Assembly: GCA_049975425.1 (NCBI GenBank)
Contig: JBNGDI010000003.1
Coordinates: 14,162-78,161, forward strand
Reading direction: 5' to 3'
DNA from: Bacteroidales bacterium
GTDB taxonomy: Bacteria; Bacteroidota; Bacteroidia; Bacteroidales; VadinHA17
Length of the DNA: 64,000 nucleotides
Shown here: one piece after another, positions 3,737 through 53,017 of the stretch
Numbering within the stretch: position 1 is the stretch's first letter
How the letters are laid out: each line of letters begins with the position of its first letter
Notes under the pieces: model-generated
Seen by the model: the letters and a program-made list of their open reading frames with translations, nothing else
Databases searched by the model: none
What the model was told of the DNA's origin: nothing
Made by a program: the position numbers and the translations under genes

Positions 3737-6133
3737 ATGTGTTCTATGTACGGCAAAACCCTCAACCGGAGATGTTTCATCAGGCTCAGTGCCCTGTCAG
3801 GCAGTTCGTTGCTGGCCGCCGGAGGATTTCTGAGCTGCCTGGGAGGGAAGAAAGGAGAACCGGCCGAAGCCGTTTCGTTTGACGACGGTGTAAAAATGAT
3901 CAGGGCAGGCTGTCCGGCCCACAATTGCGGTGGACGTTGCCTGCTCAGCGTTTATGTTAAAGACAACAAAATCATTCGCATAGAAACAGATGAGCGGCCT
4001 GATACTCCCGAAGATCCGCAATTGAGGGCCTGTATCAGGGGAAGAGCATACCGCAAAAGGCAGGATCACCCCGGCCGATTGTTATACCCGATGAAAAGAA
4101 CCGGCCGGCGCGGGGAGGGAAGGTTCGAACGCATCGGCTGGGAGGAGGCCCTGGATATGCTGGCCGCAGAGATCAGAAGGGTGAAAGGTGCCTACGGTAA
4201 TGAATCCATCCTGATTCCATACGGGACCGGAAGTTACAATCAGATTAACGGACGGCAAACAGCCGTAAGGCTGATGAACCTGGTTGGGGGCAGCCTGGGG
4301 TATTACAACAGCTATTCCTGGGCCTGTATCAGCCAGGCCACACCCTATATCTATGGCACAAACATTACGGGAAACCAGCGGCAGGACTGGCTTCATTCGA
4401 AATACATCCTGATGTGGGGATGGAACCCGGCCGAGATGCGTGACGGCACCAACAGCGAATATTTTATCAGGAAAGCCCGTGAAAACGGGGCCAGGGTGGT
4501 ATGTATCGATCCGCGCATGACCATGAGCGCAGTATCCCTTGCCGACGAATGGATCCCCATCAGGCCGGGAACCGATGTGGCCATGATGAGCGCTATGGCG
4601 TGGGTTATGATCAGGGAAAGGCTGATCGACCGTTCATTCATTAATGCTTACTGTGTGGGCTTTGACAGGGATCATATGCCTCCGGGTTGTGAAAATGAAG
4701 AAAGTTATGAGGATTATATCCTGGGAACGCGGGACGGGACAGAAAAAAAACCCGAATGGGCCTCGGCGCTAACCGGTATTCCGGCCAACACCATTGTGCG
4801 GATAGCCAGGGAGTATGCCACCGTAAAGCCGGCCATGCTGTATCAGGGGTATGGCATGCAGAGAAGGGCTTACGGAGAGCAACCGGTACTGGCCGGCTGT
4901 GTGCTCGCAGCCATTACAGGTAATTTCGGTATACAGGGCGGATGGGCCAGCGGCATGGGGTTGCAGGCTCCAGACGGAGGACCTTTCTGGAACCTGTTTC
5001 CCACCGGAACGAACCCGGTGAAAGCGACCATACCCGTTTTTCTCTGGACGGAGGCCATTCTCCGCGGTAAAGATATGGGTCCGGAAGACGGTGTTCGGGG
5101 GGCTGAAAAACTGCATACCAACATCAAACTGATCTGGGCAGTTGCATCGAATATTCTTATTAATCAGCACAGCCATGTGAACAGGTCGGCCCGGATCCTG
5201 CGCGATCCCTCCCTGGTGGAATTTATTGCGGTACAGGACCAGTTCCTTACACCCTCGGCCCGTTTTGCCGACCTGGTTTTGCCTGTAAGCACCCAGTTTG
5301 AGACCTGGGGAGTGGAAGACGGCTGGAAATACGGGGACGAAGCGATAATCATGCCCAAAATCCTGGATCCTCCGGGAGAATGCAAATCCGATTATGAAAT
5401 ATGTACCGGAGTGGCAGAAAAACTGGGAGTTAAAGACCTGTATACCGAAGGAAGAACGGAACGCGACTGGATCGAATGGTGCATTGAACAGTACAGAAAC
5501 ACCCGTTTCCCCGACATCCCCGGACTGGACACCCTTCTGAAGGATAACAGAGGGGTATTCTCAAAACCCGTAACCGAACCCGCTGTTGCTTTTAAAGATT
5601 TCCGCAAAGATCCCGTAAATCATCCGCTGAACACTCCTACCGGAAAGATTGAAATTTTTTCCAAAAGACTTTTCAGCATGAACAATCCGGCGGAAATCCC
5701 GGCCGTGCCCAAGTACATCCAGGAATGGGAGAGTCCGTTCGGACCCGAAAGCAGGAAATTCCCGCTGCAAGCCATGGGTCATCATTACATGCCGCGGGTA
5801 CATTCCACACATGCCAACAATGAATGGACCTGTGAAGCCTTCCCCCAGAGGGTATTTATGAACCCCCTGGACGCCGAAGCCAGGGGTATACGCAACGGCG
5901 ACCGGGTAAAAGTTTACAACGAGCGGGGTGCGCTGGTGCTGCCATGCCGTATTACCCGGCGTATCATGCCCGGGGTGGTTGACATTCCGCAGGGTGCCTG
6001 GTGGAACCCTGATGAGAACGGGCTGGACCATGGTGGATGTATCAACGTGCTGACCAGTGAAAGATGGACACCCCTGGCTTTCGGAAACGCACAGCATACC
6101 ATCATGGTGGAAATGGAAAAATATACAGCATGA
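3737..6133 (+). CDS. dmsA: Tat-exported molybdopterin oxidoreductase catalytic subunit, DmsA/YnfE-like (S-/N-oxide reductase family; substrate unknown)
   Basis: 798-aa ORF with twin-arginine leader LNRRCFIRLSALSGSSLLAAGG and an N-terminal Cys group CPAHNCGGRC. Its size and order (followed by DmsB- and DmsC-like genes) fit DMSO-reductase-family type II enzymes. Confidence 0.8.
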   Translation: MCSMYGKTLNRRCFIRLSALSGSSLLAAGGFLSCLGGKKGEPAEAVSFDDGVKMIRAGCPAHNCGGRCLLSVYVKDNKIIRIETDERPDTPEDPQLRACIRGRAYRKRQDHPGRLLYPMKRTGRRGEGRFERIGWEEALDMLAAEIRRVKGAYGNESILIPYGTGSYNQINGRQTAVRLMNLVGGSLGYYNSYSWACISQATPYIYGTNITGNQRQDWLHSKYILMWGWNPAEMRDGTNSEYFIRKARENGARVVCIDPRMTMSAVSLADEWIPIRPGTDVAMMSAMAWVMIRERLIDRSFINAYCVGFDRDHMPPGCENEESYEDYILGTRDGTEKKPEWASALTGIPANTIVRIAREYATVKPAMLYQGYGMQRRAYGEQPVLAGCVLAAITGNFGIQGGWASGMGLQAPDGGPFWNLFPTGTNPVKATIPVFLWTEAILRGKDMGPEDGVRGAEKLHTNIKLIWAVASNILINQHSHVNRSARILRDPSLVEFIAVQDQFLTPSARFADLVLPVSTQFETWGVEDGWKYGDEAIIMPKILDPPGECKSDYEICTGVAEKLGVKDLYTEGRTERDWIEWCIEQYRNTRFPDIPGLDTLLKDNRGVFSKPVTEPAVAFKDFRKDPVNHPLNTPTGKIEIFSKRLFSMNNPAEIPAVPKYIQEWESPFGPESRKFPLQAMGHHYMPRVHSTHANNEWTCEAFPQRVFMNPLDAEARGIRNGDRVKVYNERGALVLPCRITRRIMPGVVDIPQGAWWNPDENGLDHGGCINVLTSERWTPLAFGNAQHTIMVEMEKYTA

Positions 6134-6753
6134 AGCAACTGGCATTTTATTTCGATTCACAATACTGTTCAGGCTGCAAAACCTGCCAGGTAGCCTGCAA
6201 AGACAAGAACGATCTGGGGCCGGGTATCCTGTGGAGGAGGGTTTACGAAATCGGTGGAGGAACCTGGAAAAAAGAGGGAGAAGCCTGGGTTCATGATATT
6301 TTTACCTACAATCTGTCTATGTCGTGCAACCACTGCGACGACCCCATCTGTCTTCGTGTATGTCCCACCGGGGCCGTTGAAAAAAGGGAAGACGGCATAG
6401 TACGGATCGATCAGAATAAATGCATGGGCTGCCGGTACTGCGAGTGGGCCTGTCCATACGGTTCACCCCGTTTCGATGAAGGAAAGGGGCTGATGGGCAA
6501 ATGTGACATGTGCTGTGACTATATTGATCAGGGAAAGATGCCGGTATGTGTCAGTTCCTGCCCCATGAGAGCACTTGACTTTGGCCGGTACGAAGACCTT
6601 CTGGAAAAATACGGGAACCAGGAGAATATTTATCCCCTGCCCGATCCGGAAATTACAAGGCCCCGCATGATAGTGCACCCGCACCCGGCTCATGCTCAGG
6701 GCACGAACAGAAACCCACACATCATCAACAGGGAGGAGGTGGGAATTGGATAA
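6130..6753 (+). CDS. dmsB: 4x[4Fe-4S] electron-transfer subunit, DmsB-like
   Basis: ORF 6064..6753, with the start set to ATG 6130 (MKQLAFYFDSQYCSGCKTCQVACKD), which overlaps the dmsA stop as ATGA. Four Cys clusters are present: CSGCKTCQVAC, CNHCDDPICLRVCP, CMGCRYCEWACP and CDMCCD..PVCVSSCP. Confidence 0.85.
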   Translation: MKQLAFYFDSQYCSGCKTCQVACKDKNDLGPGILWRRVYEIGGGTWKKEGEAWVHDIFTYNLSMSCNHCDDPICLRVCPTGAVEKREDGIVRIDQNKCMGCRYCEWACPYGSPRFDEGKGLMGKCDMCCDYIDQGKMPVCVSSCPMRALDFGRYEDLLEKYGNQENIYPLPDPEITRPRMIVHPHPAHAQGTNRNPHIINREEVGIG

Positions 6754-7570
6754 GCACATCTGGAGCCTGGTGGTATTCGGGCTGCTCGCCCAGTCGGGAG
6801 CAGGAATCTGGATGACAACTGAGCTGATCCTGCTGACCCCCTCTTTTGCTGTGACTCAGGAAACAGAGCAGCTGGTCAGGAAAATCTACCTTACCGTATT
6901 CATCCTCCTGATTGTTTCCCTGATCATTTCTTTTTTCCATCTGGGTTATCCGAGGCATTTTTTTCATGCCCTGAACAATCTGGGAAGTTCCTGGCTCAGC
7001 CGGGAAATTCTGGCTCTCTCGCTTTTCCTTTTCTTTCTTGCTTTGGTTAACCTCACGGGATATTTTACGCACAAAATACCACCGGCAAATATTCTACTCA
7101 GGACCGGATGCACCCTGTCGGCCATATTTCTTCTCGTCTCCATGTCAAAACTGTACATGCTGGAAACCGTCCCCTCATGGAATACCTTTCACACTCCCCG
7201 GGCATTCGTACTCACATCCCTGCTGGCCGGAGCGGGTTTCGTTCTGTTTACCGGCCTGATTCCCGTGCCGCAAACTACATGGGGAAGGGTTTTTTCATCG
7301 GCAGCGTTTGTCCTGATCCTTCTGAGCCTGATAAACCAAATTACCTGGCCGGGCATGGAAGGATTCAGTAACCCCGTTTTTATGATCGGGGCACTGACGG
7401 GAGCCATGGCAGGGATCATTTACCTGTACCTCACTTTTTCCCAATCACCGCCCGGGATACAGGTACACGGAATCATTCTTCTGCCGGCACTGGCCTTTAT
7501 CCTGGCGGCTGTATCGGAGATCCTGGCACGTATCCGGTTCTTCAGCGCTTTCTTACGTACAGGAGTATAA
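6746..7570 (+). CDS. dmsC: Polytopic membrane anchor subunit, DmsC-like
   Basis: ORF 6692..7570. The probable TTG start at 6746 is preceded by GGAGGAGG and overlaps the dmsB end. The protein is very hydrophobic with multiple helices (WSLVVFGLLAQSGAGIWMTT, IYLTVFILLIVSLIISFF and others) and no cofactor Cys motifs. Its position and size fit a quinol-oxidising anchor. The start is uncertain (6692 or 6746). Confidence 0.65.
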   Translation: MDKHIWSLVVFGLLAQSGAGIWMTTELILLTPSFAVTQETEQLVRKIYLTVFILLIVSLIISFFHLGYPRHFFHALNNLGSSWLSREILALSLFLFFLALVNLTGYFTHKIPPANILLRTGCTLSAIFLLVSMSKLYMLETVPSWNTFHTPRAFVLTSLLAGAGFVLFTGLIPVPQTTWGRVFSSAAFVLILLSLINQITWPGMEGFSNPVFMIGALTGAMAGIIYLYLTFSQSPPGIQVHGIILLPALAFILAAVSEILARIRFFSAFLRTGV

Positions 7571-7588: not shown

Positions 7589-9595
7589 TCAGTATCTGGG
7601 AAGAATAAACCTGATATCTTCGGGTTCCCAGTCCAGCTTCCGGACAGTCAGTTCAGGAGTATACTGCAGGAGCCAGAATTTCCTGTTTTCAAAGCCATCG
7701 GAAAGATTCTGGCGGGTAAAATGGTATTCAGTATGCAGGAGGTCCTCCTGATGGGTAGGCAGGCAATAATAGCAGTCTTCTCCGTATTTCAGGAAGGAAG
7801 AAAGGAAATAACTCATGATATCGTATCCATCCCAGGCAAAACTGAAAGGCGGAGGTTCGGTATTGTACCTTTCGCGGAATGCGGCCAGGAATTCAAGTAC
7901 ATCAGGCTCATTCAGGCCGATAAAATTACTGCTGAATAGCCTCAGCTGAAGTTCAAAGAAAGCATCCAGGTCGATATTCTCGAACCGCTGCCATGCAGAC
8001 ATTCCCAACAGCTTGATGTCATACTCCTTCGACAGGTTGTGAAGATTACCTACTACACGGGTAACAAAGGGCTCATCCTCTGAAAGAACCAGCACCACAT
8101 TTTCCAGCTGCGATGACAGGGCATGTTCTAATGTATTTACCGTATCGAGGGCAGGGTGCCGGCGCTCGTACTGTACTTCCTTAAAAGGGATTTCGTGGGC
8201 AAAGGACTGGAAAGAAAGCCGGTTGAACAGGTTTCGCTTGAAATATTCCACCTGGTATATCCTGAGGCTGTCACCTCCGTGCACCAGTACCAGGTTGGTA
8301 TTCCTGAATTCCGCCATATACCTTGCCAGCATGTCCAGCTCACTTATGAGGGTAGTTTGCACCTGAAACACATAAGGATTCCCCTGTAGCACCTGGTTAT
8401 TGGATGAAAGGGGCGAGACTACAGGGATCCGGTGATCTTCGGCGAAACGTGCCACCGTCTGTAAATTGGATGGATAGGAGGTGAAAACCGGTCCGATGAT
8501 CAGGTCCATATTCCTCATATCCCGCCGGTCAAGTACGGCCCTAACCGTAGCGCTGTCACGCTCCGTATCGTAGACATACAGATTCACTGAAAGACCCTGT
8601 TCCACCAGCCGGTTCACTGCCAGCAGGGCACCCTCGTAAAACTCAATGTAATTATAGGAGCGAGGATAAATCCAGTCGGGATCGCGTTCAATGGTCCTGT
8701 ATATTTTTTCCCCGTGCTGGTTCACCTCAGAAGAATCAATGTAGGAACGCTCATCATTGGCTTCAAGATAAAATGGCAGAAAAAGGGCAACATTCACTCT
8801 TTTTCTTACTGGTGCCGTGCTCAGCGACTGGCATTCCCTGATCAGCATCAATTCTTCGTAATCACTTCTCAGGCCCGGTTCGGTAAAAACAGAATCCACC
8901 GCTGCCGAGTCTACCCCGGTAACCCCTATTATGGATCCTGTAACCGGTTCCTCCCGGGGAATCCGTATAACCATACCGGTGCGTAATCCACCGGGCAATC
9001 CATTGTTTGCCTGCCTGATCAGCCTTACCGGCACATGATATTTCCGGCTGAGCGAAGAAAGGGTTTCCCTGGGCTCAACCCGGTGATAGAGGTATTCAGG
9101 AAACTGCCTGCTGAAATCCTCCACCGGCGACTGAAAAGTTTTCCGGGGAATGCGAATGACCTGCCCCACCGGTATATCATCAATCGACAAATTGGGATTG
9201 TAATGAATAATATCGTCAACAGTTACCTGGTATTCCCTTGACAGAGAAAATACTGTCTGGCCGGGTTCCATCCGGTGGTATATAAAATTTGCCAGGCTGT
9301 CCTGATATTCCTGCCTGGGATCTGGCTCGGAATGTATCAGAGGGATCTTCAAAACCATGTCGGCTTTCAGGCCCATCATGATCATAGGGTTTTCCCTTGA
9401 TATCTCCACCTGGGAAACCTCATACGCCCTGCTGATGGAATACAGGGTTTCTCCGGGCTTGACGATATGAATATAATAAGGCTTTCCGTCGATCATCACC
9501 CTGTTCACCGATTTTTCCACCCGAACAGGCTCCACCTGGGACATGGCAGGAAGTAACAGGAACGCCAGCATCAGCAAAGACAATACTAGCCTCAT
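7589..9595 (-). CDS. Exported protein with three LysM repeats fused to a type-1 periplasmic-binding-protein-like domain
   Basis: ORF 7589..9631, with the start moved to MRLVLSLLMLAFLLLPAMSQ (signal peptide). Three LysM-like units are present: YYIHIVKPGETLYSISRAYEVS..VLKIP, YHRMEPGQTVFSLSREYQVT..VIRIP and YHRVEPRETLSSLSRKYHVP..VIRIP. The C-terminal ~400 aa (VNVALFLPFYLE..DLIIGPVF..) resembles Leu/Ile/Val-binding-type PBP folds. Confidence 0.7.
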   Translation of the reverse strand: MRLVLSLLMLAFLLLPAMSQVEPVRVEKSVNRVMIDGKPYYIHIVKPGETLYSISRAYEVSQVEISRENPMIMMGLKADMVLKIPLIHSEPDPRQEYQDSLANFIYHRMEPGQTVFSLSREYQVTVDDIIHYNPNLSIDDIPVGQVIRIPRKTFQSPVEDFSRQFPEYLYHRVEPRETLSSLSRKYHVPVRLIRQANNGLPGGLRTGMVIRIPREEPVTGSIIGVTGVDSAAVDSVFTEPGLRSDYEELMLIRECQSLSTAPVRKRVNVALFLPFYLEANDERSYIDSSEVNQHGEKIYRTIERDPDWIYPRSYNYIEFYEGALLAVNRLVEQGLSVNLYVYDTERDSATVRAVLDRRDMRNMDLIIGPVFTSYPSNLQTVARFAEDHRIPVVSPLSSNNQVLQGNPYVFQVQTTLISELDMLARYMAEFRNTNLVLVHGGDSLRIYQVEYFKRNLFNRLSFQSFAHEIPFKEVQYERRHPALDTVNTLEHALSSQLENVVLVLSEDEPFVTRVVGNLHNLSKEYDIKLLGMSAWQRFENIDLDAFFELQLRLFSSNFIGLNEPDVLEFLAAFRERYNTEPPPFSFAWDGYDIMSYFLSSFLKYGEDCYYCLPTHQEDLLHTEYHFTRQNLSDGFENRKFWLLQYTPELTVRKLDWEPEDIRFILPRY

Positions 9596-9763
9596 ATTTT
9601 TCGGTCCTTTCTCGCGCAGGTGTAAGTTCATGCAGAATACCCTTGTTAGGCCCGCAAATTAGTAAAATTTTCCGGCACCCGTGGTATCTGTCTTCAACAA
9701 TTCCGTGTTACACCGGGAATTGTTCCGGCCGGGGATGGGAAAACATTCAGCCCCGTGCAAACT

Positions 9764-10219
9764 TCAGTTCTCTTTCAACACATAATCATCGTACTCCTGC
9801 TCAAACCTGAGTTTATGTTTTGATTCCTCTCTGGCAAGGTCGAGGAATACCTTTTTCATATCCCCGTCAGGAGCAAGTTCTGACAGGTCTGTATACAGCT
9901 TCTGGGCGGCCTGTTCTTTTTTCATAGCCAGTACCAGGGCATCCCGGTAACCCATGTCAGGTGAGGGTTCCACATCCACCAGGTAATCGCCTAGTTTCAA
10001 ATCGGCAACCTGACCCTGGTCAAACGTGAAGCTTCCTTCCTCTTTGATTCGTTTCAGGCGAGCTTTATGGCCCACCTCCTCCCTGGCAAACTGTTCAAAG
10101 ATTTTTTTCATATCCTCCGTCCTGGCTTCTTTTGCCAGAGAGGTATAAAAATCCACCGCCTTTTGCTCCTCGTTCATGGCAAACTGAAGCACCTCGTCAA
10201 TATCCTGGAAATTTTTCAT
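9764..10219 (-). CDS. Ferritin-like diiron protein (rubrerythrin-type four-helix bundle without rubredoxin domain)
   Basis: 151 aa with two E...ExxH halves: EEQKAVDFY..FAREEVGHK and KKEQAAQKLY..LAREESKHK. It starts 12 nt after the stop of the upstream 1232-aa gene on the same strand. Confidence 0.75.
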   Translation of the reverse strand: MKNFQDIDEVLQFAMNEEQKAVDFYTSLAKEARTEDMKKIFEQFAREEVGHKARLKRIKEEGSFTFDQGQVADLKLGDYLVDVEPSPDMGYRDALVLAMKKEQAAQKLYTDLSELAPDGDMKKVFLDLAREESKHKLRFEQEYDDYVLKEN

Positions 10220-10230
10220 TTTTTTTCGGG

Positions 10231-13200
10231 TTAAAATACATGGTTTTTATCCAGAAGATGAAAGCGGTCATCAAAATTCTTTGTTACCGCATCCACTCCG
10301 AAATGGAAATCCTTTACGGTATCTTCAGGGGTAAAGATCAGACGGATCTTTTGTTCGCCCTGTTCGGGAAGCAGAGACATCCATTCGCTTTTTACCTCCT
10401 CGGCATCGCGGAGGCCGCCGAGTCCGAATTCCCTCATCAGTTCCAGAAGCTGGGCAACATTATCCATTCCGAAAACCGGATCCCTGTACCGGGAAAATTC
10501 CTGAATTAGGTGTCCGGCACTGGTGTATGACCCACCCGTTTCAAACGGCAGGGAAGCCGGCAGCACCAGGTGGGCCATTCGGGCGGTTTCCGTGAGGGTA
10601 TAATCCTGCACCACCAGAAAAGCCAGCTGGTCGAGCTGCTTCTTTATCTTTCCCGGATCCATGGCGCACCCAACCGGGTCTTCCCCGAATACCAGCATAT
10701 TTTTAAAACCACCTCGCATGAATACCTCACGGGTATCTGTCCCGATCCCTGTGGGAACATCCTTCACATCCCACTTTTTCAGAATACGTTTCAGATGGCC
10801 GGTGTCGCTTCCCGGGACATTCCCTGGCAGTATTCCCGGGTGGAGGCCCATATCGAACAATCCCCGGCTGTTATTCTTTTCATTCAGCAGGATCAGGCCG
10901 CTACCCGTTTTTCCGAATTTTCCCGTGAGCAGGGTCAGGTTTTTCAATTCCATACAGGCAGCCGGAGATAATTCATTTTCTGAACCAATGACCACCGCAC
11001 ACGGTTCTTTGATGTATTCATCGGCAAATGCTTCCAGATCTTTCTGTTTCCGGAAACCCGACTTTTCCAGCAAGGCATTAAAATCCTGCCTGAGCAGTTC
11101 TTTCCGGTAGGTTTCCAGTCCGTCGCATCGATCGTTCAGGAAAAGCCGGTTTTCCCATCCTTTATCAAGAATCAAACGGTTCAGCGCTCTAAGAAAATGC
11201 AGAAAGGAGGGGATACGGTACTGCCTGAGCACTTTGTGCGTCATACTGCTGTGCTCCCGCTGGGTACACTGTATCACGGGTTTATTGTGCAGCACCTTTT
11301 CCTGATTGACCAGGAAACCTACCACGGGGTGATCGCGGTTCAGTTCGCTTCCGATGAGATATATTTTCCCGGCATTCTTCAGTTCTTCAAACGGGGCGCT
11401 CCCCCGTACAAGCCTCATGGTTTCAGGCGGAGCACCCAGGTAATGGAAACTGCCGTTATGCGGGGTTCCCACGCCTGCCCTTCCAAGTTTCTGGATGAGG
11501 TATTGTTCTTCGTTCGATAACCGGGCCCCGCCCATAAGAGCCGTTTTCTCCGGGGCATGTTCCTTCACTTTCTCAGCGATAAGGCGGAATGCCTCGGAAA
11601 AACCAATGGGTTTCCATTCGTTACCCCGGCGGAGCAGCGGAGTGGTAATTCGTTCCGGATCGTTCATGTACGTATATCCAAACCGGCCATAACGGCAAAT
11701 ATTCCCGTCGGGGTTGGCCTGTCCTTCACCTCCTTCCACCCCCATTACAAACCCTCCGCGATGATGCACATTCAGGGTACATCCTACCGAACAGTAAGGG
11801 CATATGATGGTATATGTTTCGGTTTTTACCGGCCCGGGCTTGAAGGGTTTATTTTCTGTAATGGCACCCGTGGGACAGGAGGAAACACACAGACCGCAAC
11901 TCTCGCATAAGGTATTGTTCAACGATTCTCCCATGCTGGGAACCACCAGGGTGTCAAATCCCCTGTTTATCAGACCCAGCGCATCAGCTCCCGCCACTTC
12001 GTGGCATATCCTTACACAACGCGCACACAGAATGCATTTGTTGTTATCTATTTCAATAAAGGGATGTGAAAAATCCACCTCATATTCACGGAACTCTCCC
12101 CCGTATGTTTTCTGTGTGGCACCATATTCGGTGGCATATTTTTTCAGATCGCATGAAAAATAGGCCGTACAGCCACATTCCAGGCAGCGGGATGCTTCAT
12201 CGGCAGCCACCTTTTCATCGGGATATCCCAGCTCCACTTCGTTAAAATTCATCCTCCGGTCAGGGCTGAGGGTAGGCATTTCATTCCGCTTATGCTTCAC
12301 ATATTTTCCTGCCAGGTCTTCCGGAACCAGGGCACGAAAATTCTCCTTCCGGCTGATGAATTCTTCCCTGGGCGGTTCGACCGGTTCGCCAGTCAGGAGC
12401 TGGTGGCACGACCGGCTGGCTTTTCCCGCCTGGGCGATGGCTTCAATAATGGTAGCCGGGCCGGTAACCCCGTCTCCTGCAGCAAAAACCGAAGGGATAT
12501 TCGTTTGCAGGGTTCGGGGGTCGGCTTCGATGTTACCCCAGCGATCGATTTTCAGGGGAGAAGGAGCCACCCGGTTGACTTCATCGATAAAAGCCACATC
12601 GGTTTTCTGCCCGATGGCTGCCAGAATATAATCCACCGGTATATCAAATTCCGATCCTTCAATGGGCAAGGGCCGGCGGCGTCCCGATGCATCGGGCTCA
12701 CCCAGTTTCATTTTCAGGCAGGTTACTGATTGCACCTCGCCTTTCTCATTCTTATTGATCTTTTTGGGATTTGTCAGGAAAAGGTATTCCACCCCTTCGA
12801 GTTTCGATTCATGCACTTCGATCGGGTTGGCAGGCATTTCCTTTTCGGTGCGCCGGTATATCACATACACCTTATCGGCCCCGCACCTGACCGAGGTACG
12901 GCAGCAATCCATGGCAGTATTTCCCCCACCCACAACGGCAACGGTTTTCCCGTGCAAATCCACCCGCTGCCCGGTCATTTCCATATTTCTGAGAAACTCA
13001 ATACCCGAAAACACATTCAAAGCATCTTCGCCTTCGCATCCCACCAGGGTTCCTTTCTGGGAACCGATGGTCAGGATCACGGCATCGTATTCTTTCTGCA
13101 GGGTTTCATAGGCCAGGTTCTTTCCCAGTTTCCGGTTGCAGAATATCTGAACGCCCAGTTCGGTGATGGTACTGATTTCATGGTCCAGGACGTCGTTCGG

Positions 13201-13929
13201 AAGCCGGTATTCTGGAATTCCATAGCGAAGCCAGCCGCCCGGTTTGGGGGCTGCCTCATAAATATCACACTGATGGCCTTTTTGCTGCAGGAAATACGCA
13301 CACGAAAGGCCACCTGGACCAGCCCCGATCACAGCCACTTTCTTCCCGGTTGACGGGGCCACAGGTGGTCTGTAATGGTTGGAGCTTTCCAGATCGCGGT
13401 CGGCGGCAAACCGTTTCAGGTAATCGATTCCCACAGGGGCTCCCTCACCGAGCAGGTTTCGCCGGCAGGCCAGTTCACATGGCCTCACACAAACACGTCC
13501 GCAGATTGCCGGCAGGGGATTCACTTCCTTGATCAGGGCAATGGCTTCCGAGTACAGGCCTTTTTCAATCAGGGAAATGTACCCCTGCACATCAACGCCT
13601 GCGGGGCAGTTCTGCCTGCAGGGAGCTATACAATCGGCAAAATGATTGCTGAGCATCAGCTCAAGCACTGTCCGGCGGGCCTTCCGGATCTTTTCATTAT
13701 CGGTAACCACCACCATCCCTTCCTTCACCCGGGTTGAGCAGGATGGCTGAAGTCCTTTCATCCCTTCAATTTCCACCACGCAAAGAAAACAGGATGAGAA
13801 CGGTTCCAGGCGGGGATCGTGACAGAGTGTGGGAATAGTATATCCGTTTTCGCGGGCCAGTTCCAGTACCGACATCCCCTCCCTGGCTTTTACGGGTTTG
13901 TTGTTCAGTATGACATTGATTTCTTCCAT
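10231..13929 (-). CDS. Multidomain flavin/FeS oxidoreductase: [2Fe-2S] ferredoxin + GltD/NfnB-like FAD/NAD(P)H module + NuoG-type FeS domains + molybdopterin-fold domain lacking the Cys/Sec ligand (BfuC/StnC-like)
   Basis: 1232-aa ORF. Residues 1-80 read ..TIPTLCHDPRLEPFSSCFLCVVE..QPSC (plant-type 2Fe-2S as in NuoG/HydA N-termini). Residues 90-510 read DCIAPCRQNCPAGVDV..AICGRVCVRPCELAC, then VAVIGAGPGGLSCAYFL and AVVGGGNTAMDC (GltD-like). Residues 580-700 read CLECGC, HPFIEIDNNKCILCARCVRIC and CESCGLCVSSCPTGAI. Residues 705-760 read YTIICPYCSVGCTLNV (Mo-bisPGD-type 4Fe-4S). The rest is molybdopterin-oxidoreductase-like. Confidence 0.8.
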   Translation of the reverse strand: MEEINVILNNKPVKAREGMSVLELARENGYTIPTLCHDPRLEPFSSCFLCVVEIEGMKGLQPSCSTRVKEGMVVVTDNEKIRKARRTVLELMLSNHFADCIAPCRQNCPAGVDVQGYISLIEKGLYSEAIALIKEVNPLPAICGRVCVRPCELACRRNLLGEGAPVGIDYLKRFAADRDLESSNHYRPPVAPSTGKKVAVIGAGPGGLSCAYFLQQKGHQCDIYEAAPKPGGWLRYGIPEYRLPNDVLDHEISTITELGVQIFCNRKLGKNLAYETLQKEYDAVILTIGSQKGTLVGCEGEDALNVFSGIEFLRNMEMTGQRVDLHGKTVAVVGGGNTAMDCCRTSVRCGADKVYVIYRRTEKEMPANPIEVHESKLEGVEYLFLTNPKKINKNEKGEVQSVTCLKMKLGEPDASGRRRPLPIEGSEFDIPVDYILAAIGQKTDVAFIDEVNRVAPSPLKIDRWGNIEADPRTLQTNIPSVFAAGDGVTGPATIIEAIAQAGKASRSCHQLLTGEPVEPPREEFISRKENFRALVPEDLAGKYVKHKRNEMPTLSPDRRMNFNEVELGYPDEKVAADEASRCLECGCTAYFSCDLKKYATEYGATQKTYGGEFREYEVDFSHPFIEIDNNKCILCARCVRICHEVAGADALGLINRGFDTLVVPSMGESLNNTLCESCGLCVSSCPTGAITENKPFKPGPVKTETYTIICPYCSVGCTLNVHHRGGFVMGVEGGEGQANPDGNICRYGRFGYTYMNDPERITTPLLRRGNEWKPIGFSEAFRLIAEKVKEHAPEKTALMGGARLSNEEQYLIQKLGRAGVGTPHNGSFHYLGAPPETMRLVRGSAPFEELKNAGKIYLIGSELNRDHPVVGFLVNQEKVLHNKPVIQCTQREHSSMTHKVLRQYRIPSFLHFLRALNRLILDKGWENRLFLNDRCDGLETYRKELLRQDFNALLEKSGFRKQKDLEAFADEYIKEPCAVVIGSENELSPAACMELKNLTLLTGKFGKTGSGLILLNEKNNSRGLFDMGLHPGILPGNVPGSDTGHLKRILKKWDVKDVPTGIGTDTREVFMRGGFKNMLVFGEDPVGCAMDPGKIKKQLDQLAFLVVQDYTLTETARMAHLVLPASLPFETGGSYTSAGHLIQEFSRYRDPVFGMDNVAQLLELMREFGLGGLRDAEEVKSEWMSLLPEQGEQKIRLIFTPEDTVKDFHFGVDAVTKNFDDRFHLLDKNHVF

Positions 13930-13969
13930 GAATTCAGTCCGTTTTCAGTCACCGTAATGAGAAGATTTA

Positions 13970-15754
13970 TCAATCGAGCAGAATGGCATCGAACTTACAT
14001 TTGGTATAACATACTCCGCACTTTATGCACAGTTCCTGATCGATAAAGTGGGGTTGTTTTCGTTCTCCGCTTATGGCATTCACCGGACAATGTTTGGCAC
14101 ACACCGTGCATCCCGTGCATTTCTCCGGATCGACCGTATAGGTAAGAAGTGCCTTGCAGCTTTTGGCAGGGCATTTCTTTTCCCGGATGTGGGCCTCGTA
14201 TTCATCACGGAAATACCGGATGGTAGTCAGTACGGGATTCGGTGCGGTTTGTCCCAGTCCGCACAGAGAACCTTCCTTCACCAGATGGGCCAGTTCTTCG
14301 AGCTTTTCTATATCTCCTTCCTCTCCTTTTCCCTGTGTAATCCGTTCCAGTATCTCCAGCATGCGTTTGGTCCCGAGGCGACACATGGTGCATTTACCAC
14401 ACGACTCTTTCCGGGTAAAATCAAGAAAAAACCTTGCCATATCTACCATACAGGTAGTTTCGTCCATCACCACCATGCCACCCGAGCCCATAATGGCTCC
14501 GGTGGCATTGACCGATTCATAATCCACCGGGGTATCACTCAGGTAGGCAGGGATGCAGCCTCCGGAAGGTCCGCCCAGCTGAACCGCCTTGAATTTTTTC
14601 CCTTCCTGTATCCCTCCGCCCAGCTTGTAGATAATGTCATTGATAGTGATGCCCATGGGCACTTCCACGAGTCCGCCCCGGTTGATCTTCCCGGTGAGGG
14701 CAAATACCTTGGTACCCTTGCTTTTTTCCGTACCGTAGGCAGCATATTCAGCCGCCCCGTGGTTGATGATCCAGGGCACATTGGCCCATGTTTCCACATT
14801 GTTGATATTGGTAGGGCTTTTCCACAAACCCGATTCGGCCGGGAAAGGAGGACGTTTGCGCGGCATGCCCCTTTTCCCTTCTACGGAAGCGATCAAAGCG
14901 GTTTCCTCCCCGCACACGAAAGCGCCTGCACCTTCCTTAACCATGATATCGAAATCGAAACCGTCTATCCCCGCAATTTTTTCCCCAAGATATCCTTTCT
15001 CCCTTGCCCGGGCCAGGGCAATATTCAAACGCTTGATAGCCAGAGGGTACTCTGCCCGGCAATATATCACCCCTTCACAGGCACCAATGGCGTATGCCCC
15101 GATAATCATTCCTTCCAGCACGGAATGCGGATCTCCTTCAAGCAGGGAACGATCCATGAAAGCACCCGGGTCGCCCTCATCGGCATTGCAAATAATGTAT
15201 TTCACATCCCCCGGATTATTTCTGGCAAACCTCCATTTGAGGCCGGTTGGGAATCCTCCTCCCCCCCTGCCCCGCAAACCTGAATCCATGATCTCACCGA
15301 TCACCTTCTCAGGGGAAATTCTGTCGCGGGCAATCTTTGCAATGGCCTGGTAACCACCCCGGTTTTCATACTGTTTAATATCTTCCGGGTCGATCATGCC
15401 GCAGTTCCGCAGGGCAATTTTCACCTGTCCTTCCAGGAAATCCAGATCGACGGTACGAAACAGATCGGTCCTGACCATGTATTCCCTTACCGGATCATGA
15501 CGCACGATGTGTCGTTCGATCACTTCCATGGCCCGGTCTTCGTCGATGTTGCCGTAAAGGTAAGAACCCGTTTCGTCAATGATCTCGACCAGGGGTTCCC
15601 GGTAACACATGCCCACACAGCTGGTTTTTTCCAGGCTGAAGGAAAGATGTTCCGCATCCCTGAAATTCCGTATTTTCTCATAAACCCGGGCAGCCCCTGC
15701 TGCAATCCCGCAGCTGCCCAGTCCAACGATTACCCTTGGCTGATCTGTGGTCAT
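13970..15754 (-). CDS. NuoF/HydB-like FMN- and NADH-binding subunit with N-terminal thioredoxin-like [2Fe-2S] and C-terminal 2x[4Fe-4S] ferredoxin domains (BfuB-like)
   Basis: 594 aa. The N-terminus reads GLGSCGIAAGA..CVGMC. The core reads GRGGGGFPTGLKW..ICNADEGDPGAF..ESCGKCTMCR (NuoF signatures). The C-terminus reads CTGCTVCAKHCP..CIKCGVCYTKC. Confidence 0.85.
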   Translation of the reverse strand: MTTDQPRVIVGLGSCGIAAGAARVYEKIRNFRDAEHLSFSLEKTSCVGMCYREPLVEIIDETGSYLYGNIDEDRAMEVIERHIVRHDPVREYMVRTDLFRTVDLDFLEGQVKIALRNCGMIDPEDIKQYENRGGYQAIAKIARDRISPEKVIGEIMDSGLRGRGGGGFPTGLKWRFARNNPGDVKYIICNADEGDPGAFMDRSLLEGDPHSVLEGMIIGAYAIGACEGVIYCRAEYPLAIKRLNIALARAREKGYLGEKIAGIDGFDFDIMVKEGAGAFVCGEETALIASVEGKRGMPRKRPPFPAESGLWKSPTNINNVETWANVPWIINHGAAEYAAYGTEKSKGTKVFALTGKINRGGLVEVPMGITINDIIYKLGGGIQEGKKFKAVQLGGPSGGCIPAYLSDTPVDYESVNATGAIMGSGGMVVMDETTCMVDMARFFLDFTRKESCGKCTMCRLGTKRMLEILERITQGKGEEGDIEKLEELAHLVKEGSLCGLGQTAPNPVLTTIRYFRDEYEAHIREKKCPAKSCKALLTYTVDPEKCTGCTVCAKHCPVNAISGERKQPHFIDQELCIKCGVCYTKCKFDAILLD

Positions 15755-16296
15755 GGCTGCTTGCTTTTATCGGTTTCCCTGCTTTCCCTGATCCGGATCT
15801 CCCTGATCACTTTCACCGCGTCGCGGCCGGTGAGTTTGCCGTAGGTCTCTTCTCCGATCATCATTACCGGAGCAAGAGAACAGCACCCCAGGCAGGCAAC
15901 GGATTCCAGGGTAAACATTCCGTCGGCAGTGGTTTCTCCGTCGCTCACTTCCAGGGCTTCCTTCAGGGCATCGGTAATAGAACCCGCATTTTGCACATGG
16001 CAGGCAGTACCGTGACAAACCCGGATGATGTATTTGCCCACCGGCTGAAGCCTGAACTGAGCGTAAAAGGTGGCCACGCCGTACATTTCACTCAGCAGCA
16101 GACCGGTTTCCCGGGCAATTTTGAGAAAGGCCCCCCGGGGGATATAACCGTATATAGCCTGCGCACCCTGCAAAAGCGGGATCATGTTCCCCTTTTGGTT
16201 CCGGTATTTACTGATCAGGGGATCAAGCAGGCTCAGGTCTGCTTCCGGTTCTTGTATTTTTTCTGCAGGGGGAGATGGTATACGCTGAACCCTCAT
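15751..16296 (-). CDS. NuoE/HydC-like [2Fe-2S] subunit (BfuA-like)
   Basis: 181 aa with YGVATFYAQF..IRVCHGTACHV..LGCCSLAPVM (NuoE-type thioredoxin-like 2Fe-2S). Its stop overlaps the start of the NuoF-like gene by 4 nt. Confidence 0.85.
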   Translation of the reverse strand: MRVQRIPSPPAEKIQEPEADLSLLDPLISKYRNQKGNMIPLLQGAQAIYGYIPRGAFLKIARETGLLLSEMYGVATFYAQFRLQPVGKYIIRVCHGTACHVQNAGSITDALKEALEVSDGETTADGMFTLESVACLGCCSLAPVMMIGEETYGKLTGRDAVKVIREIRIRESRETDKSKQP

Positions 16297-29073: not shown

Positions 29074-31533
29074 ATGAAGCTGTCGGATCTTAAGGTAGAA
29101 GAAGAAGGGATTATTGTCAAGGTGAAAGGACGGGGAACTTTTCGCAAAAGGATCATTGAGATGGGGTTTGTCAGGGGAAAGAAGGTGAAAGTAGTACGGA
29201 ACGCACCCCTGAATGATCCGGTGGAATACCGGATCATGGACTATGAAGTATCCCTGCGCAGAAGTGAAGCCTCCCTGATCGAGGTAATTACAGAAAAAGA
29301 AGCCCGTGAAGAACACCTCACTCCCTTTAACGGGGTGTTTACCGAAGAGCACCTCAGAAGTTCGGCACGCGAAAAAGGAAAAAACATACAGGTAGCCCTG
29401 GTGGGCAACCCAAACTCGGGGAAAACCACCCTGTTCAACTATGCCTCCAGCTCAAGGGAAAGGGTGGGAAACTACGGGGGAGTTACGGTAGATTCCAAAA
29501 CCGCTGTTTTTCGTCACAGGGGATATACTTTTCATATCACCGACCTGCCGGGAACCTATTCCCTTTCGGCCTATTCTCCCGAAGAACTGTTTGTGCGGAA
29601 GCATATTCTGCATGAAATGCCTGATATCGTGATCAACGTGGTGGATGCTTCAAACCTGGAAAGAAACCTGTATCTCACCACCCAGCTCATCGACATGGAT
29701 GTACGGACCATCATGGCCCTGAACATGTATGATGACATGGCCCGAAGAGGGGCCAGGCTGGATCACGAAGCCCTGGGGAAACTGCTGGGGATCCCCATTG
29801 TTCCTACTGTAGCTTCACGCGGAAGGGGGATACGGAATCTCTTCGATAAGATTATTGAAGTATATTCCGACGAAGACCCGGTGGTAAGGCACGTTCATAT
29901 CAATTATGGTCAGGAAGTGGAAGCATCCCTGGAAAAGATCCAGGATAAAATCTGGGAAAACAAGAACCTGACCGACCGGGTTTCCTCCCGGTTCTATGCC
30001 ATCAAGCTGCTTGAAAACGACCGGTCGGTATTCGTCACCCTTACTCCCTTTCCGAATTATCAGGAAATCAGAAAAACTGCCGTTGAAGAAATGGAACGGC
30101 TCAGGAAGGTTTTCAGGGAAGATACGGAAACCATCATTGCCGATGCCCGCTACGGATTCATTGCCGGAGCCCTGAGGGAAACCCTGCGCCAGCCTCTGCT
30201 GAGCCATAACAGGATCACCGAAGGAATAGACCGTATCCTCACCCACCGGATCCTTGGATTCCCGTTTTTTCTGTTGTTCATGTTCATCACCTTTTTCAGC
30301 ACTTTCAGGCTGGGGGAGTATCCTATGCAATGGATCGACAGCCTGGTCTCTTTCATTGGCAACCTCATTGACGGGAACATGGCTGCAGGTCCCCTGCACG
30401 ACCTGCTGATCGACGGAATCATCGGCGGGGTGGGAAGCGTGATCGTGTTCCTGCCCAATATCCTGATCCTTTTTTTCTTCATCTCCTTGATGGAAGACAC
30501 CGGCTACATGGCCCGGGCAGCTTTTATCATGGATAAGATCATGCACCGCATCGGTCTGCACGGCAAATCGTTCATCCCCCTCATCATGGGCTTTGGATGC
30601 AACGTGCCTGCAATTATGGCTACCCGAACCATTGAAGACCCAAAGAACCGCCTGCTGACTATTCTGATCAACCCGTTTATGTCATGCAGTGCGCGCCTGC
30701 CGGTGTATATCCTGCTGATCGGAGCCTTTTTCCCTCAGTTTCCCGGCCTGATGCTCTTTGCTGTATACCTTACCGGGATAATCATGGCTGCAGGTACAGC
30801 CGTGCTGTTCAACAAAACCCTCTTCCGGAGCCGGGAAGCCCCATTTGTCATGGAACTTCCACCCTACCGGGTCCCGACCATCCGCAGCCTGCTGAAACAT
30901 ATGTGGCACAAGGGAGAACAATACCTGAAAAAAATGGGAGGTGTGATCCTGGTGGCATCCATACTGATCTGGGCCCTGGGATATTATCCACGCCCCCCGG
31001 AACCAGCAGAAACAACCGGCAAAGGGACCACCCAAACGGCCTTGAACATGACACAGGAAACAAAAACCGGCGAAACGGAATATAATCCCGGAAGTACAGA
31101 AAAAAATGCGGAATCTTATATTGTCAGAATCGGGCACTTCATTGAACCCGCGCTGCGCCCTCTGGGATTCAACTGGAAAATGGGCGTCAGCCTGCTAACC
31201 GGCATTGCCGCCAAGGAGGTGGTGGTCAGTACACTGGGCGTGCTGCACCAGACTGAAACCCAGGAAGGATCCGATTATGAAACCCTCATCAGCAAATTGC
31301 AGGAAGAAAAATATGAATCCGGTCCCCAGAAAGGAGAAAAGGTGTACAATCCATTATCCGCCCTGTCGTTCCTTTTGTTCATCCTGATCTATTTCCCCTG
31401 TGTGGCCGTGGTGGCGGCAGTGAAAAAAGAAACCGGCAAATGGCAGTGGGCTTTGTTCATGATCGTATACACCACAAGCCTGGCCTGGCTGGTTTCGTTT
31501 GCTGTGTATCAAATTGGTAATTGGATCTTCTGA
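29074..31533 (+). CDS. feoB: Ferrous iron transporter, FeoA-FeoB fusion
   Basis: 819 aa. The N-terminal FeoA/SH3-like region reads LKVEEEGIIVKVKGRG..GFVRGKKVKVVRNAPLNDPVEY. The G domain reads IQVALVGNPNSGKTTLFN..DLPGTYSL, followed by a polytopic gate domain. Confidence 0.9.
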   Translation: MKLSDLKVEEEGIIVKVKGRGTFRKRIIEMGFVRGKKVKVVRNAPLNDPVEYRIMDYEVSLRRSEASLIEVITEKEAREEHLTPFNGVFTEEHLRSSAREKGKNIQVALVGNPNSGKTTLFNYASSSRERVGNYGGVTVDSKTAVFRHRGYTFHITDLPGTYSLSAYSPEELFVRKHILHEMPDIVINVVDASNLERNLYLTTQLIDMDVRTIMALNMYDDMARRGARLDHEALGKLLGIPIVPTVASRGRGIRNLFDKIIEVYSDEDPVVRHVHINYGQEVEASLEKIQDKIWENKNLTDRVSSRFYAIKLLENDRSVFVTLTPFPNYQEIRKTAVEEMERLRKVFREDTETIIADARYGFIAGALRETLRQPLLSHNRITEGIDRILTHRILGFPFFLLFMFITFFSTFRLGEYPMQWIDSLVSFIGNLIDGNMAAGPLHDLLIDGIIGGVGSVIVFLPNILILFFFISLMEDTGYMARAAFIMDKIMHRIGLHGKSFIPLIMGFGCNVPAIMATRTIEDPKNRLLTILINPFMSCSARLPVYILLIGAFFPQFPGLMLFAVYLTGIIMAAGTAVLFNKTLFRSREAPFVMELPPYRVPTIRSLLKHMWHKGEQYLKKMGGVILVASILIWALGYYPRPPEPAETTGKGTTQTALNMTQETKTGETEYNPGSTEKNAESYIVRIGHFIEPALRPLGFNWKMGVSLLTGIAAKEVVVSTLGVLHQTETQEGSDYETLISKLQEEKYESGPQKGEKVYNPLSALSFLLFILIYFPCVAVVAAVKKETGKWQWALFMIVYTTSLAWLVSFAVYQIGNWIF

Positions 31534-40023: not shown

Positions 40024-41175
40024 TCAATCCCACACTCCGGGGATAGGCTGCCCGCAGGAAGCACATTTGCCGTTTTTCAGCAACGGCATGGTTACCTGGT
40101 ATCCTTTTCTCACCACCAGGGTTTTTCCGCAGTTCGGACAGAGGGTGTCCTGGGCCGGATGCCCCGGCACATTCCCCACATAAACAAAATGCATTCCTTC
40201 ATTTAGCGCTGTTTTCCTGGCCTGATCCAGCGTGCTCACCGGAGTGGGAGCCAGCCGGTTCAGCTTGTACATAGGTTGAAACCGGCTGAAATGGAGGGGG
40301 GTATCGGAAAAACCGTTCTTCACCAGCCAGCGGCACATTTCCCCGATCATTTTCATATCATCGGTCCAGGTAGGAACTATCAGGTTGGTGATCTCCAGCC
40401 ATACCCCTTCTTCCTTCAGGGTAAGCAGGGTATCCAGTACCGGTTGTAATTTTCCGGCGTTCAGCATGGCATAGATATCATCACTGAAACTCTTCAGGTC
40501 AATGTTGGCCGCATCGATCACACGGCACCAGTCTTTCAGCGGCCGGGGACTGATAAATCCTGCCGAAACGATCACATTGCTCAGGCCTGCCTGCCGGGCC
40601 AGTGTGGAAGTATCCAGTGTGTATTCATAAAACGCCACCGGATCGGAATAGGTATAGGCAATGGAAGGGCAGTTTTCCTGAATGGCCAGTTCCACTACTT
40701 TCGGTGGCATCAGGTCATAATTCCGCGTCTCCCTGGGACTCCGCTGGGATATCTCCCAGTTCTGGCAGTTCAGGCAGGCCAGGTTGCACCCTGCGGTTGC
40801 AATGGATAACACCCGGGTGCCTGGATGAAAATGATGGAGAGGCTTCTTCTCCATGGGGTCTATGTTCACCGAACAGGGATTGCCGTAGGCAATGGTGTAC
40901 AATTTGCCGTCCACTACTTCTTTTGTACGGCAATCGCCCGCCTCACCCTCTTTGATATCACATTCGTTGGGGCAGGTACGGCATTTGATCCCCCGGGGAG
41001 TGGAAATATAGTGCATGGCTTCCCGGCTCCATTTCCAGGGTTTTCCAGCCCGGATATTAATATTCTGCCCGGAATTCTCCCCGAGCAGAAAGGGGCAACA
41101 ATACATTCCTCCCACACCCAGCAGGCTTTTTCTGATAAACTCGCGTTTCGACAGTTTTTCTTCTTCCGGACTCAT
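40024..41175 (-). CDS. amrS: AmmeMemoRadiSam-system radical SAM enzyme with N-terminal Tat-like leader
   Basis: 383 aa. The leader reads LSKREFIRKSLLGVGGMYCCPFLLG. The auxiliary Cys region reads IKCRTCPNECDIKEGEAGDCR. The radical SAM motif reads IATAGCNLACLNCQNWEISQ (CX3CX2C). The C-terminal Cys pair reads CPNCGKT..CASCG. It lies on the same strand as the Memo-AMMECR1 gene. Confidence 0.8.
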   Translation of the reverse strand: MSPEEEKLSKREFIRKSLLGVGGMYCCPFLLGENSGQNINIRAGKPWKWSREAMHYISTPRGIKCRTCPNECDIKEGEAGDCRTKEVVDGKLYTIAYGNPCSVNIDPMEKKPLHHFHPGTRVLSIATAGCNLACLNCQNWEISQRSPRETRNYDLMPPKVVELAIQENCPSIAYTYSDPVAFYEYTLDTSTLARQAGLSNVIVSAGFISPRPLKDWCRVIDAANIDLKSFSDDIYAMLNAGKLQPVLDTLLTLKEEGVWLEITNLIVPTWTDDMKMIGEMCRWLVKNGFSDTPLHFSRFQPMYKLNRLAPTPVSTLDQARKTALNEGMHFVYVGNVPGHPAQDTLCPNCGKTLVVRKGYQVTMPLLKNGKCASCGQPIPGVWD

Positions 41176-41251
41176 TCGGTAAAATTAAACATTTCCGTTA
41201 TGCTTTGCCAAATAATAAACAGAATGAAGGGTAACAGGACCTTTTGTGTAC

Positions 41252-43405: not shown

Positions 43406-43465
43406 AACGATGTTTCCGTTTATCCCCGGAAGAAAGCAAACACCATGCCGAATTTGTTGCGGGAT

Positions 43466-53005: not shown

Positions 53006-53017
53006 GCTGCATGATTT

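Follow-up and report, generated by a model that had tools for sequence, protein, structure and literature searches.

Which enzyme is encoded by a run of four consecutive open reading frames (ORFs) of 181, 594, 1232 and 151 residues on the minus strand of an uncultured Bacteroidales genome, and does the last of the four genes belong to it? The run occupies positions 9764-16296 of a 64,000-nucleotide (64-kb) stretch of contig JBNGDI010000003.1 (assembly GCA_049975425.1), referred to below as the window, and all nucleotide positions are those of the window. The locus is very probably a Bacteroidota copy of the Type 1 Bfu-family transhydrogenase NfnABC, that is, of the Sporomusa-type Nfn, StnABC. 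By homology, its product is predicted to be a soluble complex reversibly catalysing 2 NADPH + NAD+ + 2 oxidised ferredoxin <-> 2 NADP+ + NADH + 2 reduced ferredoxin. The features of the operon, listed in the direction of reading, are:

15751-16296, minus strand: ORF1, NuoE-like, 181 residues; BfuC-type small subunit (NfnC = StnA) with the thioredoxin-like [2Fe-2S] gating cluster 'C1'.
13970-15754, minus strand: ORF2, NuoF-like, 594 residues, its start overlapping the ORF1 stop by 4 nucleotides (nt); BfuB-type subunit (NfnB = StnB, below the B subunit) with the flavin mononucleotide (FMN)/NAD(H) site, B1 [4Fe-4S], the B2 Zn site, ferredoxin-side B3/B4 [4Fe-4S], and an N-terminal thioredoxin-like domain with the 3Cys+Glu site B5.
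10231-13929, minus strand: ORF3, large subunit (NfnA = StnC), 1232 residues, after a 40-nt gap; its parts follow in the next four lines.
13645-13929, minus strand: residues 1-95, N-terminal [2Fe-2S] ferredoxin domain (Fer2_4).
12370-13644, minus strand: residues 96-520, inserted NfnL/GltD-like module with flavin adenine dinucleotide (FAD), NADPH site and two [4Fe-4S] clusters (A6, A7).
11830-12369, minus strand: residues 521-700, linker and NuoG-type clusters, with the CxxCxCx5C junction motif and a 2x[4Fe-4S] ferredoxin-like domain.
10231-11829, minus strand: residues 701-1232 and stop codon, FdhF-like molybdopterin-fold domain, predicted to be inactive, with one [4Fe-4S] cluster (C710/C713/C717/C745).
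9764-10219, minus strand: ORF4, 151 residues, after an 11-nt gap; rubrerythrin-type diiron four-helix-bundle protein without a rubredoxin domain (PF02915), termed erythrin in the following.

Gene order and domain order were read directly from the ORF coordinates and from Pfam, which assigns ORF1 to 2Fe-2S_thioredx (PF01257, E 1.1e-49) and ORF2 to Complex1_51K, SLBB, NADH_4Fe-4S and two C-terminal Fer4 motifs, with a weak thioredoxin-like match at its N-terminus. The domains of ORF3 follow in the order Fer2_4 (2-78), Fer4_20 (100-181), Pyr_redox_2 (196-501), Fer4_Nqo3 (623-691), Molybdop_Fe4S4 (709-757) and Molybdopterin (760-1153), and ORF4 matches the Rubrerythrin/ferritin-like family PF02915 (E 4e-17). 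An earlier account of this DNA, made from its letters and ORFs (the sequence-only reading), had described four minus-strand genes with this domain order, the last of them ferritin-like; coordinates and Pfam agree with it, and the ferritin-like protein has six diiron ligands. The top NCBIfam model for the N-terminal 646 residues of ORF3 is 'putative NADPH-dependent glutamate synthase small subunit'. A scan of the operon for sigma-70 promoters and terminators returned no more sites than shuffled sequence, and reading of the upstream regions yielded no confident Bacteroidota-type promoter, so that no promoter is claimed.

All three redox subunits find their top PDB matches in C. saccharolyticus (Csac) NfnABC, S. 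ovata StnABC and T. sibiricus (Tsib) NfnABC. For the large subunit the E-values are 2e-238 (Csac, 9BOV/9BP5), 1.9e-219 (S. ovata, 8OH5/8OH9) and 7.6e-191 (T. sibiricus, 9N5U/9N5V), and values to 1e-238 against solved structures rule out chance; the alignment to 9bov_A is near full length, covering residues 4-1030 and 1072-1202, and the GltD-like module is also homologous to canonical NfnB/NfnL (E 7e-99 and 3e-88). The small subunit matches 9bov_C (4e-55), 8oh5_A (1.6e-49) and 9n5u_C (2e-49). The B subunit scores 876-892 bits against Nfn-Bfu B subunits (the best being T. sibiricus, 892), 784 bits against the HydB of a NiFe-hydrogenase, 603-720 bits against the HydB of FeFe-hydrogenases, 400 bits against FdsB and 350-384 bits against complex I NuoF/Nqo1. 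By this ranking of bit scores, which is not a full phylogeny, all three subunits are nearer to Nfn-Bfu than to hydrogenase-, formate dehydrogenase (Fdh)- or complex I-type homologues. That a NuoE/NuoF/NuoG-like core places the locus in the Bfu family, as had been proposed, is upheld by the PDB rankings and by every sequence-level feature used to judge membership.

The domain order of the large subunit is identical to the published StnC/NfnA architecture, a comparison that the sequence-only reading had named as a check. StnC (1172 residues) consists of a [2Fe-2S] domain (1-101), a GltD-like FAD/NADPH module (102-565) and an FdhF-like domain (683-1172), the last catalytically inactive and mediating tetramerisation (PMC10482914), and Csac NfnA (1178 residues, 130 kDa) of N-terminal, NfnL-like and Fdh/NuoG-like domains (PMC11829005). 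The large molybdopterin-fold domain of the window protein had been taken for a departure from Stn. This does not hold: because StnC and NfnA carry an equivalent inactive domain, it does not separate the locus from Stn, and the large subunit has the standard bacterial architecture, of which the molybdopterin-fold domain is an ordinary part.

Conservation along the large subunit was determined from 77 homologues, 57 of them Bacteroidota-type and 20 from a distant clade (<49% identity), and residues of the GltD module were mapped by alignment to StnC, Csac NfnA and Tsib NfnA. The following are 100% conserved: the N-terminal [2Fe-2S] ligands C36, C47, C50 and C64; the ligands of the A7 cluster beside the FAD, C108, C147, C151 and K172, the last equivalent to K170 of StnC and Csac NfnA; R242 (StnC R239), the GAGPGG motif for FAD (202-207) and the GGGNTAMD motif for NADPH; and C632/C635/C638/C642 together with C675/C678/C681/C685. 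In Csac NfnA, A7 is bound by C108, C147, C151 and K170, and the lysine is strictly conserved in StnC homologues. Both motifs at the junctions of the GltD insertion into NuoG, described for StnC (Kremp 2020), are likewise kept at 100%, namely H96xxxCxxxCxxxCP (H96-C100-C104-C108-P109) and C582xxCxCx5C (C582-C585-C587-C593). The cysteine inventory of the large subunit amounts to one [2Fe-2S] and six [4Fe-4S] clusters, the same count as in StnC and NfnA. With NfnABC/StnABC as best matches and these motifs retained, the proposal of an Stn-type NADH/NADPH/ferredoxin transhydrogenase with a GltD/NfnB module in its NuoG-like subunit stands.

For the B subunit, 73 homologues were compared. It contains the FMN loop GRGGGGFPTG (residues 162-171), the B1 [4Fe-4S] ligands C452/C455/C458/C498, the B2 site C435/H522/C528/C533 (H-x5-C-x4-C), and, as had been claimed for its C-terminus, two [4Fe-4S] motifs (B3/B4; C546-C556 and C576-C586); the small subunit has the C1 [2Fe-2S] ligands C94, C99, C135 and C139. 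The FMN/NADH, B1, B3/B4 and C1 motifs are 99-100% conserved and the FMN and NAD(P) sites intact, a missing site having been one way in which the identification could fail. H522 is kept in 73/73 homologues. Among 1558 BfuB sequences, only 8 were reported by Schut et al. (2022, PMC9304861) to be without the B2 histidine, which non-bifurcating homologues are said to lack. Of the thioredoxin-like 2Fe-2S domain proposed for the N-terminus of the B subunit, the thioredoxin-like part has its weak match, but the 2Fe-2S part probably does not hold, the site GSCG...CVGMC..EP being 3Cys+Glu (C15, C46, C50, E53). This motif is common to the B subunits of Csac, Tsib and S. ovata; it binds Zn and has no role in electron transfer in both high-resolution structures, Csac and Tsib (PMC11829005, PMC12018979), and the model of the S. 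ovata structure, which is of lower resolution, has [2Fe-2S] there. By homology, Zn is more likely than [2Fe-2S] at this site in the window protein.

The mechanism can be transferred by homology from these three purified and structurally solved enzymes. A hydride from NADPH would be delivered to the FAD in the GltD/NfnL-like module of the 1232-residue subunit, and single electrons would then pass through the Lys-ligated [4Fe-4S] cluster and the later clusters of the large subunit to B1 and the FMN of the NuoF-like subunit. There the 'flavobicluster' B1-FMN-C1 would split the electrons, one path reducing NAD+ at the FMN and the other leading through the mobile [2Fe-2S] cluster C1 of the NuoE-like subunit and the C-terminal clusters B3/B4 to ferredoxin. 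The FdhF-like C-terminal domain would serve as a scaffold without catalysis of its own, and its branch of clusters would be a dead end. For a fermentative anaerobe, the direction expected in vivo is the reverse one, with NADH and reduced ferredoxin yielding NADPH for biosynthesis. Activity, in-vivo direction, the metals bound at the individual sites and the oligomeric state are all assigned here by analogy with the characterised homologues.

Several observations weigh against a simple equation of the locus with the characterised enzymes. Judged by its sequence, the window protein falls into a distinct subclade with a signature of its own: Val114 (13588-13590), in place of StnC C114, and Cys143 (13501-13503) are invariant in 57/57 Bacteroidota-type sequences, whereas the Firmicutes-type clade has Cys or Ala at position 114 and mostly Ile at 143; StnC and the Csac and Tsib proteins have Ile or Leu at the latter position. 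Since a cysteine at position 143 serves as cluster ligand in canonical NfnL/GltD, A6 and A7 may not be ligated alike in the two clades. The Fdh-like domain is only moderately similar to its StnC/NfnA counterparts (110-114 bits), the conserved extra diiron gene hints that the physiology of the clade may not be identical, and activity is assigned to the Bacteroidota members by homology only.

Among other identities, an NAD(P)+-dependent or bifurcating formate dehydrogenase (Fdh-Bfu or FdsABG-like) is suggested by database names of the homologues and by the Fdh-like domain, which is nearer to FdhF of the T. kivui hydrogen-dependent CO2 reductase (HDCR; 180 bits) than to the domains of StnC/NfnA. 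At its catalytic positions, however, Sec140, His141 and Arg333 of E. coli FdhH align to G832, A833 and N1016; the protein ends about 230 residues before the FdhH end and has no Pfam match to PF01568 (Molydop_binding), a domain that the genuine molybdoenzyme at 3737-6133 of the same window, taken as positive control, does have. An active formate dehydrogenase was rejected on these grounds: with Sec/His/Arg and PF01568 missing, formate dehydrogenase function is excluded at the sequence level, in agreement with S. ovata Stn being inactive on formate, and the pterin site of Csac NfnA is incomplete, its map showing no pterin density (PMC11829005). We regard this identity as extremely improbable. 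The public names 'formate dehydrogenase major subunit', 'molybdopterin-dependent oxidoreductase' and 'FAD-dependent oxidoreductase', like the NCBIfam name for the N-terminal 646 residues, do not match NfnA/StnC function, and the first two mislead in that they imply a molybdoenzyme, which the large subunit is not. A non-bifurcating NAD(P)H oxidoreductase, with a large subunit like Geobacter SfrAB or a sulfide-dehydrogenase-type NADPH:acceptor reductase to which NuoE/F add NADH input free of ferredoxin coupling, would accommodate both the oxidation of NADPH with artificial acceptors by StnC alone and two relatives (loci L045 and L073) that have no adjoining BfuB/C genes; it is nevertheless very unlikely, as the B subunit retains every bifurcation-linked feature and scores far higher against bifurcating homologues than against non-bifurcating ones.

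NCBIfam, which calls the first two proteins NuoE and NuoF, would imply NuoEFG, the N module (NADH input) of respiratory complex I. The NuoE model is barely above its cut-off (154 vs 141 bits), though, and the NuoF models remain under theirs for ORF2; the B subunit is extended at both ends by domains not found in NuoF, a GltD module like that of the large subunit never occurs in NuoG, and there are no nuoA-D or nuoH-N genes within the 64-kb window. We give this identity virtually no credence, and the complex I context that the sequence-only reading had named as contrary evidence is not found in the window. Among the roughly 45 annotated ORFs of the window there are no nuo, Rnf, ferredoxin, NfnSL, hydrogenase or glutamate synthase large-subunit genes. 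Canonical NfnAB/NfnSL (T. maritima 4YLF, P. furiosus 5JCA) was also considered and set aside: it catalyses the same overall reaction, and the window protein keeps the NfnL-type Cys143, but neither the operon nor the 64-kb window encodes a small FNR-like NfnA/NfnS-type subunit (a-FAD, [2Fe-2S]). In NfnAB this subunit binds NAD(H) and bifurcation takes place at the FAD of NfnB/NfnL, whereas in the window system bifurcation would, by homology, take place at the FMN of the NuoF-like subunit.

Compared with the individual enzymes assigned to NfnABC/StnABC, the locus has the three subunits, the gene order and the large-subunit layout (N-terminal domain, NfnL-like, NuoG-Fdh-like) of Csac NfnABC (PMC11829005), which is the best PDB match for both the large and the small subunit, and shares with it 3Cys+Lys at A7, the NfnB sites B5 (3Cys+Glu) and B2 (3Cys+His), and the incompleteness of the pterin site. 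It differs in a large subunit longer by 54 residues, in Cys143 (Ile in Csac) and Val114 (Cys in Csac), and in an Fdh-like domain nearer to true FdhF than that of Csac, a thermophilic Firmicute for which no downstream erythrin gene is described. With S. ovata StnABC (PMC7483475, PMC10482914) the architecture, the equivalents of K170 and R239 and the junction Cys motifs are common; there, activity was shown in both directions and none with formate, and the genes adjoin metVF in an acetogen (Wood-Ljungdahl context), whereas the neighbours in the window are unrelated. T. sibiricus Nfn-BfuABC (PMC9304861, PMC12018979) has, like the window proteins, Val where StnC has C114, the B5 motif (with Zn bound in its structure) and, as predicted here, the electron path FAD-A7-A6-A3-A2-A1-B1-FMN; its NfnA of 963 residues is shorter by about 270 residues, without A4 and without part of the Fdh-like domain, and one heterotrimer makes up the whole complex, while the window protein belongs with the long bacterial form.

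The closer match of the Fdh-like domain to true FdhF points to a less decayed remnant and suggests that decay has gone less far in the Bacteroidota-type clade than in StnC/NfnA. All four cysteines of its Molybdop_Fe4S4 cluster (residues 710-745, window 11695-11802) are replaced in about 16% of that clade, so the cluster at the tip of the dead-end branch is dispensable; the cluster-less loci are L022, L030, L033, L035, L039, L040, L043, L048 and L049, with the variants SGED, SGEG, NGEG, DGVG, DTAG and DGGS, and nearly all of these sequences fall into one subclade of a neighbour-joining (NJ) tree. A Cys at the column of FdhH Sec140 was seen in 7/20 distant-clade sequences, where the alignment is weak (median 24% identity) and the residue may be an artefact.

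The gene order NuoE-NuoF-large subunit is kept in nearly all of 80 related genomic loci compared. The nearest genomes are two uncultured Bacteroidetes metagenome-assembled genomes (MAGs), HyVt-105 and SpSt-1193, at 91-92% identity; dozens of Bacteroidales, Marinilabiliales-type, Ignavibacteria and Delongbacteria genomes have the same gene order with full-length homologues of 50-60% identity, and Bacteroidales genomes hold hundreds of near-full-length homologues. The genus Terrisporobacter, which is counted among the carriers of Stn, belongs to a second group that is more distant (36-39% identity), and the conservation of gene order in loci including this genus was counted as support for NfnABC/StnABC identity. 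An exact-sequence look-up of the large subunit returned no identical entry. The enzyme had been thought uncharacterised in Bacteroidota; this stands as far as a purified enzyme is concerned, for which the literature searched holds no paper (Nfn-Bfu/Stn combined with Bacteroidota gave generic Bacteroidota papers only), but not as regards occurrence, as Nfn-type BfuB sequences in Bacteroidetes were already reported in 2022 (Schut et al., PMC9304861) and homologues number in the hundreds. At the sequence level, many anaerobic Bacteroidales and related MAGs would carry a Bfu-type (FMN-based) transhydrogenase; the form described for Bacteroidaceae and Prevotellaceae is canonical NfnAB, either as such or fused. 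This bears on the modelling of NADPH supply and ferredoxin balance in these fermenters. Its importance is modest, and we expect no new principle unless the diiron protein proves a true partner; the Cys143/Val114 signature or the linked diiron gene could guide the first biochemistry of an Nfn-Bfu from a Gram-negative non-acetogen.

The erythrin gene is the most distinctive clade-specific feature of the locus and the only lead worth an experiment. Its ligands E18, E48, H51, E102, E132 and H135 (two E...ExxH half-sites) are at least 95% conserved among 40 orthologues; it has no match outside the rubrerythrin/ferritin-like diiron families, and its closest solved relatives (2fzf, TM1526, encapsulated ferritin) are all uncharacterised. 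An erythrin gene lies directly 3' of the large subunit on the same strand in 37/52 evaluable Bacteroidota-type loci, as against 1/19 in the distant clade, and the gaps between the two genes are mostly -16 to +40 nt across the loci of the Bacteroidota-type clade; it is probably co-transcribed with the operon. Schut et al. (2022, PMC9304861) predicted a rubrerythrin-linked 'Rub-Bfu' (Type 4 Bfu) in another clade, in which, as here, a rubrerythrin-family gene adjoins Bfu core genes. Assignment of the locus to Rub-Bfu was rejected: there the rubrerythrin gene comes right after BfuB and BfuA is absent, whereas in the window a complete NfnA gene separates BfuB from the diiron gene.

Could the erythrin then be a functional fourth partner of the NfnABC core in the Bacteroidota-type clade, its diiron site taking electrons from the complex or from the large subunit? 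The 11-nt gap, the recurrence downstream within the clade, the conserved ligands and the Rub-Bfu prediction speak for this, as does NCBIfam model PRK12775 (a fused FNR-like/GltD/ferritin-domain protein), which matches both the GltD module and the erythrin. In the same direction point two Bacteroidales loci, L045 (6001-9949) and L073 (6001-9981), in which an NfnA-type large subunit with the full domain set (1155 and 1122 residues) is followed by an erythrin-like gene, with no NuoE/NuoF-like genes within 6 kb upstream. The opposing evidence is considerable. At least six losses of the erythrin gene have occurred within the clade, and none of the characterised enzymes has it. Of three orthologues sampled, the one in L083 (3567-7456) lies away from nfnABC, after a glutamate dehydrogenase gene. 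Rubrerythrin-like genes are often passengers near oxygen-sensitive enzymes. An unrelated gene 3' of the operon (LysM and periplasmic-binding-protein-like; window 7589-9631, minus strand) is equally syntenic, recurring at 7608-9575 in L084 and at 7659-9650 in L085, both distant relatives; conserved gene order thus reaches past the functional unit and makes adjacency a limited guide, and that of the erythrin may only mirror this conservation. An apparent tendency of loci without the Molybdop_Fe4S4 cysteines to have lost the erythrin as well (raw Fisher p = 0.007) was rejected as evidence, since it shrinks to one or two events on the NJ tree, where the erythrin was lost at least five further times with the cluster intact. 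On balance we consider the partnership unlikely.

If the partnership were real, it would provide an outlet (peroxidase/oxidase) through which NAD(P)H or ferredoxin reduces H2O2/O2, or a sink for self-protection; the cluster branch in the Fdh-like domain, deemed a dead-end remnant in StnC/NfnA, would acquire a use, and the pairs in L045 and L073 would be stand-alone NADPH-dependent versions. Upstream of these two pairs an SDR (FabG-like) gene is found in both and a DUF4270 gene in L073, and in L083 the erythrin orthologue has close by another gene of the rubrerythrin family and one for an Nramp metal transporter, a setting that hints at a role in iron or oxidative stress independent of Nfn. The protein 100% identical to the erythrin was found only on short contigs devoid of genomic context. 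A review of Nfn distribution makes no mention of ferritin or rubrerythrin.

Elsewhere in the window, the molybdoenzyme used as positive control belongs to a three-gene set of the dimethyl sulfoxide (DMSO)-reductase family (3737-7570, plus strand), comprising a catalytic subunit of 798 residues (Molybdop_Fe4S4, Molybdopterin, Molydop_binding), an FeS subunit with four clusters (Fer4_11) and a membrane anchor of the DmsC type. At 29074-31533 (plus strand) lies the gene for a ferrous iron transporter, a FeoA-FeoB fusion. The minus-strand cluster at 40024-44971 consists of a radical SAM protein (40024-41175), a spermidine-synthase-domain protein (41252-43405) and a Memo-AMMECR1 fusion (43466-44971), and is reminiscent of the known AmmeMemoRadiSam gene association. 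Mevalonate-pathway genes lie at 51965-55335 (minus strand), with a diphosphomevalonate decarboxylase-like gene at 51965-53005 and HMG-CoA reductase at 53947-55335; some HMG-CoA reductases use NADPH.

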